Assembly (NCBI RefSeq): GCF_028288205.1
Contig: NZ_JAQBOD010000055.1
Location: 36,434-100,433, forward strand
From: Mucilaginibacter sp.
GTDB taxonomy: Bacteria; Bacteroidota; Bacteroidia; Sphingobacteriales; Sphingobacteriaceae
Reading direction: 5' to 3'
Length of the DNA: 64,000 nt
Both the position numbers and the translations under genes were made by a program. Positions 2,969 to 50,489 of this stretch are shown piece by piece (within the stretch, counting starts at the first letter, position 1; every line of letters starts with the position of its first letter). The notes beneath the pieces are model-generated. The model had not been told where the DNA came from. It saw nothing but the letters and a program-made list of their open reading frames with translations, and made no database searches.

Positions 2969-3944
2969 AATAAAAGCCGGAATAATTGGTGGTGCGGGCT
3001 ATACCGGCGGTGAAATGCTGCGGATATTAATTAACCACCCCAACGTAGATATTGCCTTTGTAAATAGTACCAGCAATGCCGGTAATTATATTTACGAGGT
3101 GCATACCGATCTGTTCGGTGATACAGAGCTAAAATTTTCGGACGGACTACAAACCGACATAGATGTACTATTTTTATGCGTCGGCCATGGCGATGCTAAA
3201 AAGTTTTTAGAGGCTAACGCGATACCTGATAATGTGAAGATTATTGACCTAAGCCAGGATTTTAGGTTGAGTAAAAATTCAAAAACAGGTTCAAAAAGTT
3301 TCGTTTACGGTTTACCAGAATTAAACAGGGGCGCTATTAAATCGGCACAAAATATAGCAAACCCGGGCTGCTTTGCTACCTGCCTGCAATTAGGTTTATT
3401 GCCATTAGCCAGCAAAGGATTATTAAATAGCGAGGTTCATATTTCGGCTACAACTGGTTCTACAGGTGCTGGTCAGAGTTTGGCTGCTACCTCTCACTTT
3501 ACCTGGAGAAATGATAATCTTTCGGTTTATAAGGTTTTTAATCACCAGCATTTAAGTGAGATCGGCGAATCTTTAAAACAACTACAACCTACATTTGATC
3601 AAACTTTAAATTTCATACCATATAGGGGCGATTTTACAAGAGGCATTTTTGCATCTATTTATATGGATAGCGAGTTATCCGAAGAAGAAGCGTTGAAGCT
3701 TTATGAGGACTTTTTTGCAGGTCACCCATTTACCCATGTAACCGACAGGAATATAGACCTTAAACAAGTGGTAAATACCAATAAAGTATTTTTACAGGTT
3801 AAGAAACATGGTAATAAACTATTTATTATAAGCATGTTAGATAATTTACTTAAAGGCGCCTCGGGTCAGGCGGTTCAGAACATGAACCTATTATTTGGCT
3901 TTGATGAGCGCGCAGGATTACGACTTAAGGCGACGGGCTTTTAG
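2946..3944 (+). CDS. argC: N-acyl-gamma-glutamyl-phosphate reductase
   Basis: 332 aa. GIIGGAGYTGGE NAD-binding motif and active-site NPGCFAT. Confidence 0.93.
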   Translation: MTELRSNKIKAGIIGGAGYTGGEMLRILINHPNVDIAFVNSTSNAGNYIYEVHTDLFGDTELKFSDGLQTDIDVLFLCVGHGDAKKFLEANAIPDNVKIIDLSQDFRLSKNSKTGSKSFVYGLPELNRGAIKSAQNIANPGCFATCLQLGLLPLASKGLLNSEVHISATTGSTGAGQSLAATSHFTWRNDNLSVYKVFNHQHLSEIGESLKQLQPTFDQTLNFIPYRGDFTRGIFASIYMDSELSEEEALKLYEDFFAGHPFTHVTDRNIDLKQVVNTNKVFLQVKKHGNKLFIISMLDNLLKGASGQAVQNMNLLFGFDERAGLRLKATGF

Positions 3945-4005
3945 CCCCGAGCCACCTCGAAACACTGTATTAAGTATCTAAATTTTATACCTTATCTAAA
4001 TAAAA

Positions 4006-5133
4006 ATGAAATTATTCGACGTATATCCTATTAACCCTATCAATATTGTAAAAGGTGTTGGCAGTTTGGTTTATGATGATAAAGGACAAGAATACCTGGA
4101 CCTGTATGGCGGCCACGCTGTTATCTCTATCGGCCATACTAATACGCATTATGTAAAACGGTTAGAAAATCAATTACATCAAATAGGATTTTATTCTAAC
4201 TCAATAGAAATTCCTTTACAAAAAGAATTAGCCGAGAAATTAGGTCGTGTATCAGGTAAGGAAGATTACCAGTTATTTTTAGTTAACTCGGGCGCTGAAG
4301 CCAATGAGAATGCTTTAAAACTGGCCTCTTTCTATAATGGCAAAAAGAAGGTTATCGCATTTACCGGTGCTTTCCACGGACGGACATCATTAGCAGTAGC
4401 AGTTACAGACAACCCAAAGATAGTTGCCCCTGTTAATGAAACAGATAATGTAATTTTCGTTCCATGGAAAGATGAGGCAGCTTTAGAACAGACTTTTGTT
4501 GATAATGAAATATCATCAGTAATTATTGAAGGTATACAGGGAGTTGGTGGTATACAGGTTGCACCGGAAAGTTTCCTGCAAAAAATAAGGTCGCTTTGCG
4601 ATACCCATAACGCGGTATTTATTGCAGATGGTATACAATGCGGATACGGACGGACAGGCAAGTTTTATTCGCATGATTTTGCCGGGATAAATGCAGATAT
4701 TTATACTATGGCTAAAGGAATGGGTAACGGTTTCCCTATTGGGGCCATAAGTATATCGCCAAAAATACAGCCCGCATATGGTATGTTGGGTACTACTTTT
4801 GGAGGCAACCATTTGGCCTGCGCTGCTGCGTTAGCAGTATTAGAAGTAATGGAACAGGATAATTTACTGCAAAATGCAGCTACAGTTGGTGCATATTTAA
4901 TTGATGAATTGAAGAAATTCAAACAGGTTAAAGAAGTGCGTGGACGTGGCCTAATGATAGGCATAGAACTGCCTGCCGAATATGCACACGCCAAAAAGGA
5001 CCTGCTATTTAAACATCATATATTTACCGGCGAGGCTAAACCAAACGTGATCAGGCTGCTGCCGGCATTAAATTTAACCAAAGCACATGCTGATCAATTT
5101 TTAGAGGCTTTTACAACTGTAATCAATAAATAG
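4006..5133 (+). CDS. argD: Acetyl/succinyl-ornithine aminotransferase (class III PLP aminotransferase)
   Basis: 375 aa. GGHAV...GH, AFHGRT and the FIADGIQCGYGRTGKF motif. Confidence 0.9.
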   Translation: MKLFDVYPINPINIVKGVGSLVYDDKGQEYLDLYGGHAVISIGHTNTHYVKRLENQLHQIGFYSNSIEIPLQKELAEKLGRVSGKEDYQLFLVNSGAEANENALKLASFYNGKKKVIAFTGAFHGRTSLAVAVTDNPKIVAPVNETDNVIFVPWKDEAALEQTFVDNEISSVIIEGIQGVGGIQVAPESFLQKIRSLCDTHNAVFIADGIQCGYGRTGKFYSHDFAGINADIYTMAKGMGNGFPIGAISISPKIQPAYGMLGTTFGGNHLACAAALAVLEVMEQDNLLQNAATVGAYLIDELKKFKQVKEVRGRGLMIGIELPAEYAHAKKDLLFKHHIFTGEAKPNVIRLLPALNLTKAHADQFLEAFTTVINK

Positions 5134-6210: not shown

Positions 6211-7458
6211 TTATTTACCATCAGGCTTAATTGATGCGTTAATAACCCTATTCAAGGTTAACCCCTGCACTATCACCGAGAATATCACTATAAAATAACT
6301 ACCTGCCAATATAATATGCCGATAGGGACTGGCAGGTAATGATAGCGCCAACGCAATTGATATGCCCCCACGCAATCCTGCCCAGGTAAGAATATTTACA
6401 CTGCTATAACTAATATTTAATGTACGACGCAAAAAAGTTAAGGGTAAACTAATACTTAGCCAACGTGCTATTAATATCACAAATATTCCCACCCCACCTA
6501 TCAACCAGTAATTATTTAAATAGGGTAAATTGATCATTTGCAGGCCTATCATTACAAATAAAATTGTGTTTAGCATTTCATCTATTAGCTGCCAAAACTT
6601 CTCGAGCGCCTGGTGCGAGTGCTCAGTACTATCAATATTTATAGTTTGGTTACCGGCAAATAACCCGGCGCACACAACAGCCAACGGGATAGAAAAATCC
6701 ATAAACGCAGCTACAACAGAAATGCTCATAACTAATGCAAGTGATACCAAAACAATGGTTTGAAAATCAGTAATGGTTTTCATTAGCCGGAAAGCAATAA
6801 AACCAAATACAATTCCCAAAATGATTCCACCAAACACCTCACGAATAAATAAAATGCTTGTTTTGGCAAAATCTAATTTGTCGCTGCCTGACTGCGTAAA
6901 CTCTAATATGGTAATAAATAGTACCAGCCCTATACCATCATTAAATAAGGATTCGCCGGAAATTATAGTTTCCAGGTTTACCGGCAATTTTGAATTTTTG
7001 ATGATCGCTCCTACTGCTACCGGGTCGGTTGGCGAAATCAGCGCACCAAATAAAAAGCAGTAAACCAACGGCACATGGATATGAAACAGCGTGGTAACAC
7101 CATAAAACAATCCACCAAAAATAGCGGTTGAAAATATAACCCCTAACGTACTTAGTATAAATACGGGCCGCATTTCTTTTTTTAATCTTTTAGTATTTAA
7201 TGAAAACGAACCGGAGAAAAGTAAAAAACCCAGCATAATGTTTAATACCGTGCTCGAAAAATTTATATTCTTTGCCAGTAACGTAAGATATCGTTCAATG
7301 CCTGGGTTTAGCTTATCAATAGTAATAGTTATTACCGATACCAGTATAGCTATAGTAACTATACCAATTGTACCCGGTAGTTTTATAAAGCGGGCATTAA
7401 TGTAGGAGTAGATGGCACTCACTATAACCAATAAAGCAATAATTACAAACAGATCCAT
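6211..7458 (-). CDS. Na+/H+ (cation:proton) antiporter, CPA1/NhaP-like
   Basis: 415 aa polytopic membrane protein. Contains SPTDPVAV and ESLFNDG motifs. Confidence 0.8.
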   Translation of the reverse strand: MDLFVIIALLVIVSAIYSYINARFIKLPGTIGIVTIAILVSVITITIDKLNPGIERYLTLLAKNINFSSTVLNIMLGFLLFSGSFSLNTKRLKKEMRPVFILSTLGVIFSTAIFGGLFYGVTTLFHIHVPLVYCFLFGALISPTDPVAVGAIIKNSKLPVNLETIISGESLFNDGIGLVLFITILEFTQSGSDKLDFAKTSILFIREVFGGIILGIVFGFIAFRLMKTITDFQTIVLVSLALVMSISVVAAFMDFSIPLAVVCAGLFAGNQTINIDSTEHSHQALEKFWQLIDEMLNTILFVMIGLQMINLPYLNNYWLIGGVGIFVILIARWLSISLPLTFLRRTLNISYSSVNILTWAGLRGGISIALALSLPASPYRHIILAGSYFIVIFSVIVQGLTLNRVINASIKPDGK

Positions 7459-7484
7459 TTTAATGGTATTAAGTTATGACTATA

Positions 7485-8786
7485 TTACTTTTCAGGTTCA
7501 ACCGTTCTGGTTTGACGGTTAAAACTTCTTATTATTAAGCGGTTATCACTGTTTTTGGTAAAATAATTTATGGCCCAGGTTAAAAAAACCGACGTTTTAT
7601 TTGAAAAGCCCGCTAACGACATGATATGTACAAAACCCCATAAAAGCCAGGCAAAAAATCCCTGGAAATGTAGCCTGCCCAAATCTGCTACCGATTTATT
7701 ACGCCCAATGGTAGCCAGCGTACCTTTATCATGATATTTAAAAGGTTCTGTCGGTTCTGCATTTATTAAATGAACCAGGTTTTTGGCCAGCCATGCCCCT
7801 TGTTGTATAGCTGCAGGTGCAACACCCGGATGGCCGTTAGGATATTCTTCGCTTATTATAGCTGATACATCCCCTATAGCAAAAATATTTTGATAGCCCT
7901 TTACCCTATTTATTTCATCGGTTTGTATGCGCGAGCCACGGGTTAACGTAGCATTTGTTATTCCCTGGGGTACCTCGCCCATTACACCTGCTGCCCAAAA
8001 TACGTTACGGGTTTTTATCGTCATTCCATCATCTATCTTTAATATTAACCCGTCATAGCTTTCTACATGAACGCTGTTATATATGGTAACATCATTTGCC
8101 AAAAGAAACTGTTTAGCCTTTTTTGAAGCCCCGTCAGACATTGCTGCCAGTAGCCTGTCTTTGCCTTCTACCAAATAAACGTTCATGTCATGTTTACTCA
8201 GTCCATGATAATCTTTTTGCAGAATTAAATGTCGCATCTCGGCTAAAGCCCCTGAAAGTTCAACGCCTGTAGGGCCGCCTCCTACTACTACAAAAGTCAT
8301 TAAGGCATCTTTCTCGTCTTTTTCTTTGGTTATCATGGCCATCTCTAAATGCTGTAGAATAAGGCCCCGTAAGTTTAATGCCTCCGGTACATTTTTCATT
8401 GGCATTGCACAATTTTCAATTGTTGTATTACCAAAAAAGTTGGTATTTGAGCCTGTTGCAATAACCAAATAATCATAATGAATATTGCCTATATTGGTTG
8501 TAAGGATATTTGTTTCAGGGTTAATAGCTTCTACATGAGCCAGATTAAAACTAAAATTGTCCTGACAGGTAAATATTCTACGGATAGGAAAAGCGATAGA
8601 ATCGGCCGGAATAGCACCCATTGCCACCTGGTATAATAAAGGCTGAAAGGTATGGTAATTGTGCTTATCAAGCATTAGTATATCAACCGGTGCTTTTTTG
8701 AGTTTTTTTGCCAATTGTAAACCAGCAAACCCGCCGCCAATAATTACTACGCGGGGTTTGCTATTTTTTTGTTGATCCATGTACAA
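7485..8786 (-). CDS. ndh: Type II NADH:quinone oxidoreductase (NDH-2)
   Basis: 433 aa. Two dinucleotide folds (VVIIGGGFAGL, VVVGGGPTGVE) and the IFAIGD motif. Confidence 0.9.
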   Translation of the reverse strand: MYMDQQKNSKPRVVIIGGGFAGLQLAKKLKKAPVDILMLDKHNYHTFQPLLYQVAMGAIPADSIAFPIRRIFTCQDNFSFNLAHVEAINPETNILTTNIGNIHYDYLVIATGSNTNFFGNTTIENCAMPMKNVPEALNLRGLILQHLEMAMITKEKDEKDALMTFVVVGGGPTGVELSGALAEMRHLILQKDYHGLSKHDMNVYLVEGKDRLLAAMSDGASKKAKQFLLANDVTIYNSVHVESYDGLILKIDDGMTIKTRNVFWAAGVMGEVPQGITNATLTRGSRIQTDEINRVKGYQNIFAIGDVSAIISEEYPNGHPGVAPAAIQQGAWLAKNLVHLINAEPTEPFKYHDKGTLATIGRNKSVADLGRLHFQGFFAWLLWGFVHIMSLAGFSNKTSVFLTWAINYFTKNSDNRLIIRSFNRQTRTVEPEK

Positions 8787-45355: not shown

Positions 45356-45432
45356 TTCCCGTGGGATTTAAAGCTGGTTAGCAATTGGTTGGATTAAATT
45401 TACAATAAATTCTTATCTGAACCATGATTTTT

Positions 45433-45975
45433 GGTAGTGTCTCAGTTTGAAATTTAATTTTCACTTGTAATCTCACCCCCATATCGTATTGCCGCTTCAA
45501 GTATATCAATGTTTATATCTTTTAGCGTTTTGAACCTAATGCAATAACCAGTCACACTCGCCTTGCCTATGTTTTTTCCATACGTTTGGGCTAAGTATGT
45601 CTTATCATTGATACCAAGGATATAGACAGAGATTCCGGTTTTGTTTGCGCTCAAACCAATTTGAAAAAAATCCCTGGTCTTTCCATCAGCATATTTTATG
45701 GTGTAAAATCCATAGCCTATAGTAGGGTTACTAACAGTTTTATTTTCGCTGTTTTTACCATTGTCGAACCATAATTTACAACCTGGTAAAACTTGAAGTG
45801 TGAGCTGGTGCAACTGTTGCATATCACTACGCTTTGATTCAGGTTGGCTAGTAATATAGTTTTTGATTTGTTCTTGTACGTTCATATAAAATATAAAATT
45901 ACGGGTCGTTTACTCTGCCTTTTCAAATCTCGCTTTATTTTTAGTTATACACTAATTTCAAACTGAGACACTATC
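45433..45975. mobile_element. 543-bp non-autonomous cassette: 22-bp TIRs, 8-bp direct duplication (TGATTTTT), single cargo gene
   Basis: TIRs are GGTAGTGTCTCAGTTTGAAATT (45433-45454) and 45954-45975 (21/22 as reverse complement). TSD copies are at 45425-45432 and 45976-45983. No transposase lies inside. Confidence 0.7.
45454..45885 (-). CDS. DUF1801/YdhG-like protein (cargo of the cassette)
   Basis: 143 aa. The family assignment rests on overall pattern (I..YI...PE..R......L, IGYG, CIRFK) and is moderate only. Confidence 0.6.
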   Translation of the reverse strand: MNVQEQIKNYITSQPESKRSDMQQLHQLTLQVLPGCKLWFDNGKNSENKTVSNPTIGYGFYTIKYADGKTRDFFQIGLSANKTGISVYILGINDKTYLAQTYGKNIGKASVTGYCIRFKTLKDINIDILEAAIRYGGEITSEN

Positions 45976-46051
45976 TGATTTTTAGGATTAAAGAATTTTA
46001 GGTTTTTTTATAATTAATCAGAACAATCTTAAAAATCATGGTTAGACACAC

Positions 46052-46102: not shown

Positions 46103-47362
46103 TTATGCTTCTACCAATTCTTCATACGGGGTGCCTACCGTCATAGGGTCCTTATGGAACTTGCCATCTTTCATGATGCCATGCAGTCTCTTTTTGTCCT
46201 GCAATATTTTGATGTCTTTAAGCGGATCCCCATCAACCAGTAACAGATCGGCCAGGTAGCCTTCTTTAACTTTACCCAGGTCGTTTGGCATATTCATTAT
46301 TTCGCCGCCCCATACGGTGGCCGCACGAATGGTGTCCATAGTACTCCAGCCTAAACGCTCAACAAATATTTGCAGGTCTTTTGCATAAGTGCCGTGCGGT
46401 GTCCATAGGAAACCATAATCGCCGCCCGGAAGTATTTTTATACCTCTCTTGTGCATTTCGGTAAGGCCCCTTACGGCATTTTCTAACTCTCTTTTGTAAC
46501 CTACCTTTTCTGCAAGCTCGCTCGAGTAGCCAAACTGACCGGCATCTTCTAAAGTCGCGGTTATCCAGTTTAGGCCAGGTGCTACAAATACAGTATCTTT
46601 TTTAGCTTCCAGCATATCCATACCTTCGTCGTCAATATAGCTTGCATGATAAATAACATCAACGCCATTACGCAGGCACATTTTTATACTTTCGGCGCTA
46701 CGCGCGTGGGCAGATACCCTTACACCGCACCTGTGTGCTTCTTTAACAACCACAGCTACTTCATCATCATCAAAAAATGTTTGTTGTGCCCAAACGCGGG
46801 TGGTAATTTCTTCGCCGCTTAATATTAGTTTGATCATGTCAACGCCGCTGCCAATAATTTCACGGGCAACTTTTCGTACCTGGTCAACGCCATCAACTAC
46901 GTTTGATGCTTTTGGCAGTAATAAGCCATTTGAGGTAGCAAGTTCCATAGCATTAGCCAGGTAACGGGGACCGGGAAAACGCCCGGCATTTATAGCATCG
47001 CGAATAACAATATCCAGCCTGTTTTTTGCCGATGCAGCGCCAACACACATGGTATAACCGGCATCAATATACATCTTAGCCGATTCGACGCATACCAGCA
47101 TATGCTCTTCTACCGGCATATTTTGTACAAAGTCTAAATCGCCGCTGTTCCAGCTTAAGTGGGTGTGCGCATCGCATAGGGTAGACATCAGCGTGCGGCC
47201 GTTGCCTTCTATTACTCTGGTATCACCATCACCTAAAATGCCGCCACCTTCGGCAACTTTTTTAATACGGTTACCTTCAACCAGCACATCGCCGTTAAAG
47301 GTACGCTCGTTATCGCAATCAATAACGTTTACGTTTTTAAATAAAATTGAATTCCCTTTCAT
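46103..47362 (-). CDS. Metal-dependent amidohydrolase-family protein
   Basis: 419 aa. Metal-binding pattern CDAHTHL with later H and D residues. Typical composite N- and C-terminal beta domain. Confidence 0.8.
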   Translation of the reverse strand: MKGNSILFKNVNVIDCDNERTFNGDVLVEGNRIKKVAEGGGILGDGDTRVIEGNGRTLMSTLCDAHTHLSWNSGDLDFVQNMPVEEHMLVCVESAKMYIDAGYTMCVGAASAKNRLDIVIRDAINAGRFPGPRYLANAMELATSNGLLLPKASNVVDGVDQVRKVAREIIGSGVDMIKLILSGEEITTRVWAQQTFFDDDEVAVVVKEAHRCGVRVSAHARSAESIKMCLRNGVDVIYHASYIDDEGMDMLEAKKDTVFVAPGLNWITATLEDAGQFGYSSELAEKVGYKRELENAVRGLTEMHKRGIKILPGGDYGFLWTPHGTYAKDLQIFVERLGWSTMDTIRAATVWGGEIMNMPNDLGKVKEGYLADLLLVDGDPLKDIKILQDKKRLHGIMKDGKFHKDPMTVGTPYEELVEA

Positions 47363-47491
47363 AATTATACATTTTAATTGGTTTGTTGCGTGTATTTGGG
47401 TTACACTATAATTGGTTTACTGTGTTGTATACGTAGGAAATATTAAGAAAGAAATAAAGAACGACAGGCAGCCATAACATGGGCTGTAAAC

Positions 47492-47528
47492 AAAAAATTC
47501 TATACTACTAAGCAGTATAGAATTTTTT
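47492..47528 (-). terminator. A/T-flanked hairpin spanning the stop codon of the alpha/beta-hydrolase gene
   Basis: AAAAAATTCTATACT-loop-AGTATAGAATTTTTT. 9-bp core stem with A6 and T6 extensions. Confidence 0.45.
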
Positions 47529-48281
47529 AATCAATGCTAAAACCTCGTTTGGCTTTTCGCTTATTGTCCAGTGGCCGCAACCGCTTAACAACTCGTATTG
47601 TGAGCCGCTTATGGCTGCATGCAACTTCTCAACATTTGCAGGCGGAGCGGTTTTATCTTCATCACCGGTTATCAGTAATGTTTTACAGGTAATTTTTTCA
47701 GGATCGGCTTTAACGCTTTCTGATAAAGCGATACAGCTTTGTGCATAACCTTCGGCATTTTGACGCATTAATGATTCGCGTACATAACCTACCACTACCC
47801 CTCTGGTAGTCTTGGTTTCTTCTGATAAGCCACCTACTGATATGGCGTCAGCAACCGGGGTCATACCTTTTTCACGTACCAACGCGGCACGGTCTTTTAA
47901 AGCAGGGCGCGCAGGCTCAGGTGCTTCGGCTAACGGGCCCAGCAATACAAGGTCCGTAACTCTGCCGGGTTGTGATGCAGCCATGTGCTGACAAACTATG
48001 GTACCCATAGAGTGACCAATAACTTTAGCTTTATCAATACCTAATTCATCTAAAACAGCAAACATATACTCAGCCAGTTCAGGAATAGAAATTCCCTCGG
48101 CATTGTCTGATCGTCCTGCGCTTGGCAGATCGGGAGCTATCAGTTTATATTGTTTACCAAATTCAATTGTGGCAGGCGCCCAAAAATTTGATGTGCCGCC
48201 TAAACCGTGAACCAGGATAATAGCTTCGCCTTCGCCGGTTACATCTACTGCAATTGTTTTGCCTTTAATAGTTAGAAACAT
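47508..48281 (-). CDS. Alpha/beta-fold hydrolase (enol-lactonase-like)
   Basis: 257 aa. HGLGG oxyanion region, nucleophile GHSMG and a C-terminal GH. Confidence 0.8.
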   Translation of the reverse strand: MFLTIKGKTIAVDVTGEGEAIILVHGLGGTSNFWAPATIEFGKQYKLIAPDLPSAGRSDNAEGISIPELAEYMFAVLDELGIDKAKVIGHSMGTIVCQHMAASQPGRVTDLVLLGPLAEAPEPARPALKDRAALVREKGMTPVADAISVGGLSEETKTTRGVVVGYVRESLMRQNAEGYAQSCIALSESVKADPEKITCKTLLITGDEDKTAPPANVEKLHAAISGSQYELLSGCGHWTISEKPNEVLALIKKFYTA

Positions 48282-48305
48282 GTTTTTAATTGTTATGGTT
48301 AATTT

Positions 48306-49172
48306 TTATGTGATTGTATTTTCAATATATCCTATTCCTGATATAGCTATTTTCATTACATCGCCTTTTTTCAGGAATTTGGGCGGGTTAAAACCTATCC
48401 CTACTCCTGCGGGTGTACCGGTTGCTATAATATCGCCCGGCGACAAGGTCATACTTGCCGATATAGCGGCAATAATGGTTGGTATATCAAATATCAGGTC
48501 GCTGGTATTGGCTCTTTGACGCTCTTCGCCATTTATTATGCCGGTTATCTCCATATTGGTTGGGTCAACCTCATCTGCCGATACGATCCATGGACCCATA
48601 GGGCAAAAGGTATCAATAGATTTACCCAGGAACCATTGTTTATGGGCCGATTGGGTATCACGTGCGGTAACATCATTAATAACAGTATAACCAAAAACAT
48701 GGTCGTAGGCGTTTTCTTTGCTGATGGTACGACCGCCCTTACCAATAATAACGCCCAGCTCAGACTCATAATCAATTTTTTCTGATAACGTCCACGGAAC
48801 TACAACATCATCATAGGGCCCGTTAAGTGAGCTTGGGGCCTTGGTGAAAATGATAGGAAGATCAGGGATAACATCTGTTTTGTTAGAGTCGAACCCGCTG
48901 CCGGCAAATTCTTTGGCGTGTGCATGATAGTTTTTACCTACACAAATAATATTTTTATTGGGTTGGGATATGGGCGATAAAAGGTGAACATCATTTATAG
49001 CAAATGTCTCACCTGTATATTCGGGAGATGTTCCGTTAGATAGTCCCTCTATTACGGCTATCATAGGGTCAATAGTGTTGCCGGGCGATTGGATAACTTT
49101 TATAACAGCGTTATCCACGTCAACAACACCCAGCTTTACAGCTTGGTTAACTTTAAACTTGGCTAATTTCAT
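48306..49172 (-). CDS. Fumarylacetoacetate hydrolase (FAH) family protein
   Basis: 288 aa. E.ELGVIIG and GDII.TGTP.GVG motifs. Confidence 0.88.
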   Translation of the reverse strand: MKLAKFKVNQAVKLGVVDVDNAVIKVIQSPGNTIDPMIAVIEGLSNGTSPEYTGETFAINDVHLLSPISQPNKNIICVGKNYHAHAKEFAGSGFDSNKTDVIPDLPIIFTKAPSSLNGPYDDVVVPWTLSEKIDYESELGVIIGKGGRTISKENAYDHVFGYTVINDVTARDTQSAHKQWFLGKSIDTFCPMGPWIVSADEVDPTNMEITGIINGEERQRANTSDLIFDIPTIIAAISASMTLSPGDIIATGTPAGVGIGFNPPKFLKKGDVMKIAISGIGYIENTIT

Positions 49173-50406: not shown

Positions 50407-50489
50407 CTGAACCATGATTTACGAGATTTGAGGATTACCTGTATAACTCCTAACAAGGCAATCTTTTAATCCCCAAAATCATAGTTCAG
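50407..50489. repeat. REP-like palindrome, family E (intact copy)
   Basis: Outer arms CTGAACCATGATTT / AAAATCATAGTTCAG. Inner arms GAGGATTA / TAATCCCC. Located between convergent genes. Confidence 0.8.

Follow-up and report, generated by a model that had tools for sequence, protein, structure and literature searches.

A putative IS1-family mobile insertion cassette with a DUF1801 passenger gene in Mucilaginibacter sp.

The cassette and its cargo

The window analysed here is a 64-kb stretch of DNA from the genome of a Mucilaginibacter sp. It contains a segment of 543 bp (45433-45975, the cassette) that is bounded on both sides by 22-bp inverted repeats (Table 1). As an earlier note on this DNA had claimed, the two repeats agree at 21 of 22 positions: the inner 20 nt are perfect and the single mismatch is a G/A difference at the second base. 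In the whole 64 kb the 22-mer has these two matches only (up to three mismatches allowed), where shuffled sequences give an expectation of 0.00. The same octamer TGATTTTT abuts both ends, also as described before, and both of its copies are complementary to one AAAAATCA at 46031-46038.

The sole credible ORF within the cassette lies on the minus strand and encodes a protein of 143 aa. Its stop codon shares one base with the left repeat, and its start codon is separated from the right repeat by a leader of 68 bp. The ORF listing of the unit thus confirms the arrangement of one passenger gene with its upstream region. The unit had also been described as lacking a transposase, which holds true: the DUF1801 gene is its only ORF, and tblastn with two family transposases (see below) as queries found no transposase in the cassette or in the 64-kb window, nor any remnant of one in the 543 bp.

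Table 1. Coordinates of the cassette, its target duplication and the interrupted host repeat (window positions)
Feature	Position	Strand	Remarks
Outer left arm of the interrupted host palindromic repeat, CTGAACCA	45416-45424	.	Pairs with 46039-46046; matches family arm GTCTGAACCATGATTTTTAGGATTAAAGGATT
Left copy of the target-site duplication, TGATTTTT, 8 bp	45425-45432	.	Adjoins left repeat
Terminal inverted repeat, GGTAGTGTCTCAGTTTGAAATT	45433-45454	+	3' side of the cargo gene; equals the family consensus
Cargo gene, DUF1801/YdhG-like protein, 143 aa	45454-45885	-	WP_299516530.1 / MDB4926518.1
Leader, 68 bp	45886-45953	-	Between cargo start codon and right repeat; core CTAAAAATAAAGCGAGATTTGAAAAGG
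Second terminal inverted repeat, GATAGTGTCTCAGTTTGAAATT on the minus strand	45954-45975	-	One mismatch to consensus
Right copy of the target-site duplication, TGATTTTT, 8 bp	45976-45983	.	Adjoins right repeat; identical 8/8
Rest of the interrupted palindrome: inner left arm AGGATT, loop, complete right arm AATCTTAAAAATCATGGTTAG	45984-46046	.	
Uninterrupted member of the same palindrome family	50407-50489	.	Comparison only, outside the cassette

The RefSeq product of the cargo (WP_299516530.1) reads "DUF1801 domain-containing protein [Mucilaginibacter sp.]". The protein matches Pfam DUF1801 with an E-value of 1.2e-6 and 29.2 bits, just over the cut-off of 27.2, by which the assignment as DUF1801/YdhG-like is borne out. 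The fold matches agree: the top PDB hits are the YdhG-like proteins 9t2w and 2oc6, and the fold family includes the frataxin-like protein YdhG. As these hits derive from a poor AlphaFold model (pLDDT 59), they serve only to corroborate the Pfam match. A PDB sequence search with the cargo gave no match. The leader presumably holds the promoter and 5' UTR and would drive expression of the cargo. It has no match in Rfam, and promoter and terminator scans of the unit gave no informative result, with a promoter model (the sigma-70 consensus) that is unfit for Bacteroidota.

The interrupted host repeat

When the 543 bp and one copy of the octamer are taken out, the remaining site folds into a hairpin with z = -4.8, as stable in 0 of 200 shuffles, and its termini match the uninterrupted palindrome at 50407-50489. 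The restoration of a hairpin that the earlier note had described is therefore reproduced. The 27-mer at the rebuilt junction, TCTGAACCATGATTTTTAGGATTAAAG, was found as an exact match in 23 unrelated metagenome contigs. These contigs represent more than 20 distinct sequence contexts, with two pairs sharing one context, and the 27-mer makes up the conserved arm of palindromes of ~90 nt there. It follows that TCTGAACCATGATTTTTAGGATTAAAG is the intact arm of a repeat family that does exist. The uninterrupted target is thus a real and common sequence, and the cassette would have split an intact member of it.

The palindrome family itself (loci L252-L274 and the copies in the window) has a strongly conserved arm GTCTGAACCATGATTTTTAGGATTAAAGGATT. 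Some of the metagenome copies are single-armed, and one is located directly 3' of a tRNA end (L253). REP-like sequences, MITEs and terminators are candidate natures for this family.

The 23 contigs bear on the target family only: blastn with both flanks found no orthologous locus among them. Exact matches to both flanking proteins were found only in Logan run SRR13312976, which is of the same strain, and no empty site of a relative was found. For the amidohydrolase on the right flank there is no homolog of more than 65% identity besides that of its own genome. The best matches of this amidohydrolase (46103-49172 region) are actinobacterial, and it and the neighbouring genes for an alpha/beta hydrolase and an FAA-hydrolase may form a block acquired horizontally. 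The two contigs of SRR13312976 (L001 and L002) both break within the cassette, one exactly 30 nt past the first base of the repeat and the other within the conserved leader core. The break after 30 nt is what a k=31 assembly of a repeated end would show, and the two breaks give a hint, and only that, of at least one further DUF1801 cassette in the sample.

A repeat shared across phyla

The distribution of the 22-bp repeat was examined by two scans, one of viral contigs with a 16-nt core of the repeat and one of GTDB genomes (one genome per species) with a 20-mer. The core was found at 107 loci in the viral contigs, in many unrelated and often GC-rich contexts, and at 50 of these it is preceded by GGTAGT to give the exact 22-mer. 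The 20-mer was found at 120 or more loci in GTDB, and 108 of the matches listed contain the exact 22-mer. These loci belong to Alphaproteobacteria, Acidobacteriota, Bacteroidota, NC10, Nitrospinota, Planctomycetota and others. Within the Bacteroidota, the 20-mer occurs in Mucilaginibacter, Flavipsychrobacter, Agriterribacter, Ferruginibacter and Cytophagales. A literature search for the repeat sequence or for "ISMhu11" gave no match.

The loci were then paired with an inverted partner (at most 4 mismatches, within 9 kb). Among the 62 inverted pairs obtained, 43 have a perfect 8-bp duplication at their flanks and 9 have one that agrees at 7 of 8 positions, where a perfect duplication is expected by chance at 1.5e-5 per pair. 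In total, 51 distinct elements of 79-4790 bp, from Alphaproteobacteria, Acidobacteriota, Bacteroidota and further phyla, combine the repeat with duplications of 7/8 or 8/8. Over their 102 ends, positions 1-21 of the repeat are conserved at 90% or more and the conservation drops sharply after position 22, although these values are partly inflated because the loci were retrieved by an exact 16- or 20-mer.

This distribution bears on the simplest alternative, namely that the repeats belong to the host palindrome family or arose at random around a resident gene. The region is AT-rich and does hold the palindrome family. However, no matches are expected by chance, and the 22-mer is common to more than 150 loci in unrelated phyla. 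The 22-mer GGTAGTGTCTCAGTTTGAAATT is moreover missing from the uninterrupted palindromes, both at 50407-50489 and in the 23 metagenome contigs, so that it is not an ordinary arm of the host repeat, a point on which the earlier note had made its reading depend. An origin by chance or from the host palindrome can hence be regarded as negligible.

The target duplications also decide on two further readings. In invertons of Bacteroidota, inverted repeats of ~20 bp bracket a few hundred bp, and the cassette has the same anatomy. A site-specific recombinase could then flip the gene-bearing segment via its 20-22-bp inverted repeats. Inversion, however, does not give rise to a perfect 8-bp direct duplication such as the one here, from which a palindrome is restored. 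In many phyla, the same 22-mer also delimits elements that have 8-bp duplications and encode a transposase, and the flipping of a complete gene along with its own leader would switch nothing. An inverton is therefore very improbable. The target duplication likewise leads to rejection of an integron gene cassette: such a cassette has a single attC at its 3' side and neither terminal inverted repeats nor a target duplication, whereas the window unit has both.

Autonomous relatives and their transposase

The search for a transposase bounded by the same repeat, as proposed in the earlier note, was successful. A DDE transposase, probably of the IS1 family, is encoded by elements of 2.1-4.8 kb that have the identical 22-mer and perfect 8-bp duplications. 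The full-length gene is present in 25 of the 51 elements, all of at least 2.1 kb, and is usual in those from 2 kb upwards. It consists of one continuous ORF of about 266-321 aa, which often ends inside the repeat (C-terminus ...ISN*), and the D, D and E positions are invariant across six aligned members. The repeats of the window cassette are 22/22 and 21/22 identical to the ends of transposase-bearing elements, among them L075, L096, L172, L250 and L251. Apart from the repeat, the cassette shares nothing with the rest of the family.

The best profile match of the family transposases is IS1, at scores below both curated cut-offs: NCBIfam NF033558 is matched with E-values of 1.8e-16 and 5.9e-17 (60.7 and 62.3 bits, cut-off 100) and Pfam DDE_Tnp_IS1 (PF03400) with 22 and 23.9 bits (cut-off 24.1). 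Plasmid genes that are 54-61% identical to the family transposase are named "IS1 family transposase" in RefSeq, and homologs are named likewise by JGI. On plasmid NZ_CP041717 of Acidiphilium multivorum, an element of 2.6 kb has the same repeat and the perfect 8-bp duplication AAGCCGAG. Plasmid NZ_CP011481 of Hoeflea sp. carries an element of 4.2 kb, also with the same repeat and a perfect duplication, GATGATTG.

A profile of the low-GC transposases retrieved at least 8000 homologs, and PF03400 is precomputed on most of the best 120. Chitinophagaceae, Panacibacter, Nemorincola and Flavisolibacter are named among the matches listed; Mucilaginibacter is not among the named homologs in the best 120 of the at least 8000. 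Full-length relatives in Bacteroidota are L172 (Flavipsychrobacter), L154 and L075.

The ends of IS1-family elements follow the pattern GGnnnTG (GGTGATG in IS1 itself), and their target duplications measure 8-9 bp. The present family resembles them in its ends (GGTAGTG) and its 8-bp duplications, as well as in the best (though sub-threshold) profile match and the RefSeq product name of its transposase. In classical IS1, the transposase is produced from overlapping insA and insB' genes with a programmed frameshift, whereas the autonomous elements of this family have a single continuous ORF. They are therefore grouped with the single-ORF members of IS1 and not with classical IS1. The window element differs from IS1-family insertion sequences by the absence of any transposase.

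In the sample, the autonomous members always bear extra genes, for example XRE/ImmA-type regulators or DUF3467. The passengers of several same-repeat relatives are of a defence or addiction type: a GmrSD_N protein and a RiboL-PSP HEPN protein in L172 (547-3989), a DNA methylase fused to an Mrr-like domain in the 2505-bp element of L092, and XRE/ImmA-like regulators in L075 (928-3866) and in the 2584-bp element of L174. The Acidiphilium element (L250, 2312-4945) adjoins a RES-Xre toxin-antitoxin pair. A small lysine/alanine-rich ORF of 77-87 aa recurs near one of the repeats in many family members (L075 3544-3807 on the minus strand, L154 7107-7340 on the minus strand, L034, L152 and L156). It has a conserved stretch like LGKLGGxKGGKARAxxLTPxxRxEIAxKAAxARW and no match in Pfam, and may serve the element in an accessory or regulatory role. 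In L096, a full-length family member splits a pair of ORFs (3227-4399 and 7368-7916) that, with translations read by eye, resemble one TnpB/OrfB-like gene. One of the two ORFs extends into the repeat, pointing to a nested mobile element.

The family also includes many units without a complete transposase. The smallest are MITE-like (79-221 bp). Among units of 370-1060 bp, some hold remnants of the transposase and others hold unrelated ORFs. Several small members, for instance L041, L072 and L152, are deletion derivatives that keep transposase fragments. At 2-2.6 kb, there are again cassettes without transposase, one of them with a methylase-Mrr fusion. Copies with different cargo or with none, for which the earlier note had suggested looking, thus exist from the 79-221-bp units up to the 2-2.6-kb cassettes.

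The DUF1801 cassette at other loci

Homologs of the cargo number in the thousands, and the best 120 are 85-91% identical to it. They come from Mucilaginibacter species, Chitinophaga niabensis and many metagenomes. A near-identical second copy of the cassette was not found: the closest cargo among the matches listed is 91% identical. In every lineage examined the neighbours of the cargo differ. The copies usually keep the leader core and a recognisable 3' repeat. The core CTAAAAATAAAGCGAGATTTGAAAAGG is present in L003, L004, L007, L013, L131, L157, L276 and L278, including copies that are devoid of the 5' repeat. The leader occurs in two variants, a short one and one that is about 60 bp longer.

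Further copies with the same cargo, which the earlier note had also proposed to seek, are hence present at different loci in other Bacteroidota, and several have duplications of their own. L013 is flanked by CAAATTGG (8/8), while the duplications of L131, from a Mucilaginibacter MAG, and of L003 agree at 7 and 6 of 8 positions, respectively. In other DUF1801 cassette copies one or both repeats are gone, and since the repeats are eroded in most copies, much of the cassette family is fossil. As read from these genomes, the cassette is shown to have moved as a unit, with gene, leader and repeats together at unrelated loci. A scan of the viral contigs for the cassette-specific 3' junction gave no match.

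The median pairwise dN/dS of the cargo copies is 0.17, corresponding to purifying selection. Their dS amounts to 0.23-0.52, including comparisons with Chitinophaga, which belongs to a different class. The low dN/dS, taken together with a low dS even against Chitinophaga, indicates that the cargo is probably a functional gene that was spread horizontally. A separate observation was made in L006, a contig assigned to Candidatus Tumulicola. There, a 90%-identical DUF1801 gene (3001-3426) with a GC content of 0.42 is found without repeats in a contig of GC ~0.6. This copy reflects either a cross-phylum transfer or a chimeric MAG contig.

The other copies also weigh on the most serious alternative, decay in situ. 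Here, a full-length IS1-family element with a DUF1801 passenger would have lost its transposase by internal deletion, and the 543-bp unit itself would never have transposed. Such decay does occur in the family, as the small members L041, L072 and L152 are plainly deletion derivatives. The transposase gene of many full-length elements also ends within the repeat, at the same position as the cargo does. Nevertheless, the compact unit of repeat, leader, DUF1801 gene and repeat recurs elsewhere between duplications of its own (those of L013 and L131), the 543 bp are free of transposase remnants, and none of the sampled elements with a full-length transposase carries a DUF1801 homolog (tblastn). 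Decay in situ is thus considered unlikely.

Proposed origin and comparison with known systems

The cassette at 45433-45975 is most probably a mobile insertion cassette (MIC), that is, a non-autonomous derivative of the IS1 family that is putatively mobilised in trans (estimated probability of about 0.88). It would keep only the two 22-bp terminal repeats of the IS1 family, the transposase being replaced by the passenger gene and its leader. Both repeats would have been recognised by a cognate DDE transposase of that family, encoded at another site, which placed the unit in the left arm of the palindromic host sequence. The octamer TGATTTTT would have been duplicated on repair of the staggered cut. 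The perfect duplication and the 21/22 agreement of the repeats suggest that the insertion is a comparatively recent event on an evolutionary scale. The transposition proposed in the earlier note is supported by the transposase-bearing elements with the same repeat, the other copies at other loci and the intact natural target.

The earlier note had not recognised this terminal repeat or cargo arrangement as that of a described element. Both can be placed: the arrangement corresponds to the described MIC class (PMC3129680), and the repeat is most probably that of the IS1 family. With a parent family that can be recognised, the element is less novel than was then assumed.

The MIC class was defined in PMC3129680, and other examples are the qnrS2 MIC of Aeromonas plasmids (PMC5444012) and the Tn3-like MICs of Xanthomonas (PMC4337579). 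Known MICs, including the IS231-derived MIC231 of the Bacillus cereus group, have the inverted repeats of an insertion sequence family together with its target duplication. They encode no transposase, carry one or a few passengers unrelated to transposition and are presumed to be mobilised in trans. The window cassette shares these features. It differs in its parent family (IS1 instead of IS4/IS231 or Tn3), in its cargo (a DUF1801 gene instead of a peptidase, a resistance gene or an effector) and in its host, which is a member of the Bacteroidota.

Transporter IS, MICs and MITEs are established categories (PMC3129680; PMC7986276). Transporter IS (tIS) are IS1 members with passenger genes, and the related autonomous elements, which always bear passengers in the sample, are similar to them. 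Bacterial MITEs, such as MITEAba12 (PMC6382973), are non-autonomous, have terminal repeats and target duplications and depend on a transposase in trans, as would the window unit. MITEs are small and non-coding, however, while the window unit carries a leader and a complete 143-aa gene under purifying selection. A classification as MITE was therefore rejected.

Implications

With this cassette, the few MICs described so far gain a probable IS1-family representative from Bacteroidota, and no new mechanism is revealed by it. The question of more interest is why its DUF1801 cargo has been so successful. A broader reading can be offered tentatively, and is rather less likely than its opposite. The repeat GGTAGTGTCTCAGTTTGAAATT could be the mark of a pan-phylum, IS1-like gene-shuttling platform that repeatedly sheds transposase-less cassettes and whose members almost always carry passengers, including defence-type modules. 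The DUF1801 cassette would be its most successful offshoot in Bacteroidota, spread horizontally across classes, and perhaps to another phylum, through selection on the cargo itself. In that case, the benefit of the DUF1801 protein would be portable and independent of context, and worth identifying.

For Mucilaginibacter, a protein annotated as "DUF1801 domain-containing protein" can now be read as the probable cargo of a transposable cassette. This cassette is tied to a very large IS1-related family that is scarcely annotated at the DNA level and that appears to ferry passengers across many phyla. It thereby suggests how a small gene came to be spread widely among soil Bacteroidota, where it is highly conserved, and this makes the DUF1801 gene a reasonable target for functional study.
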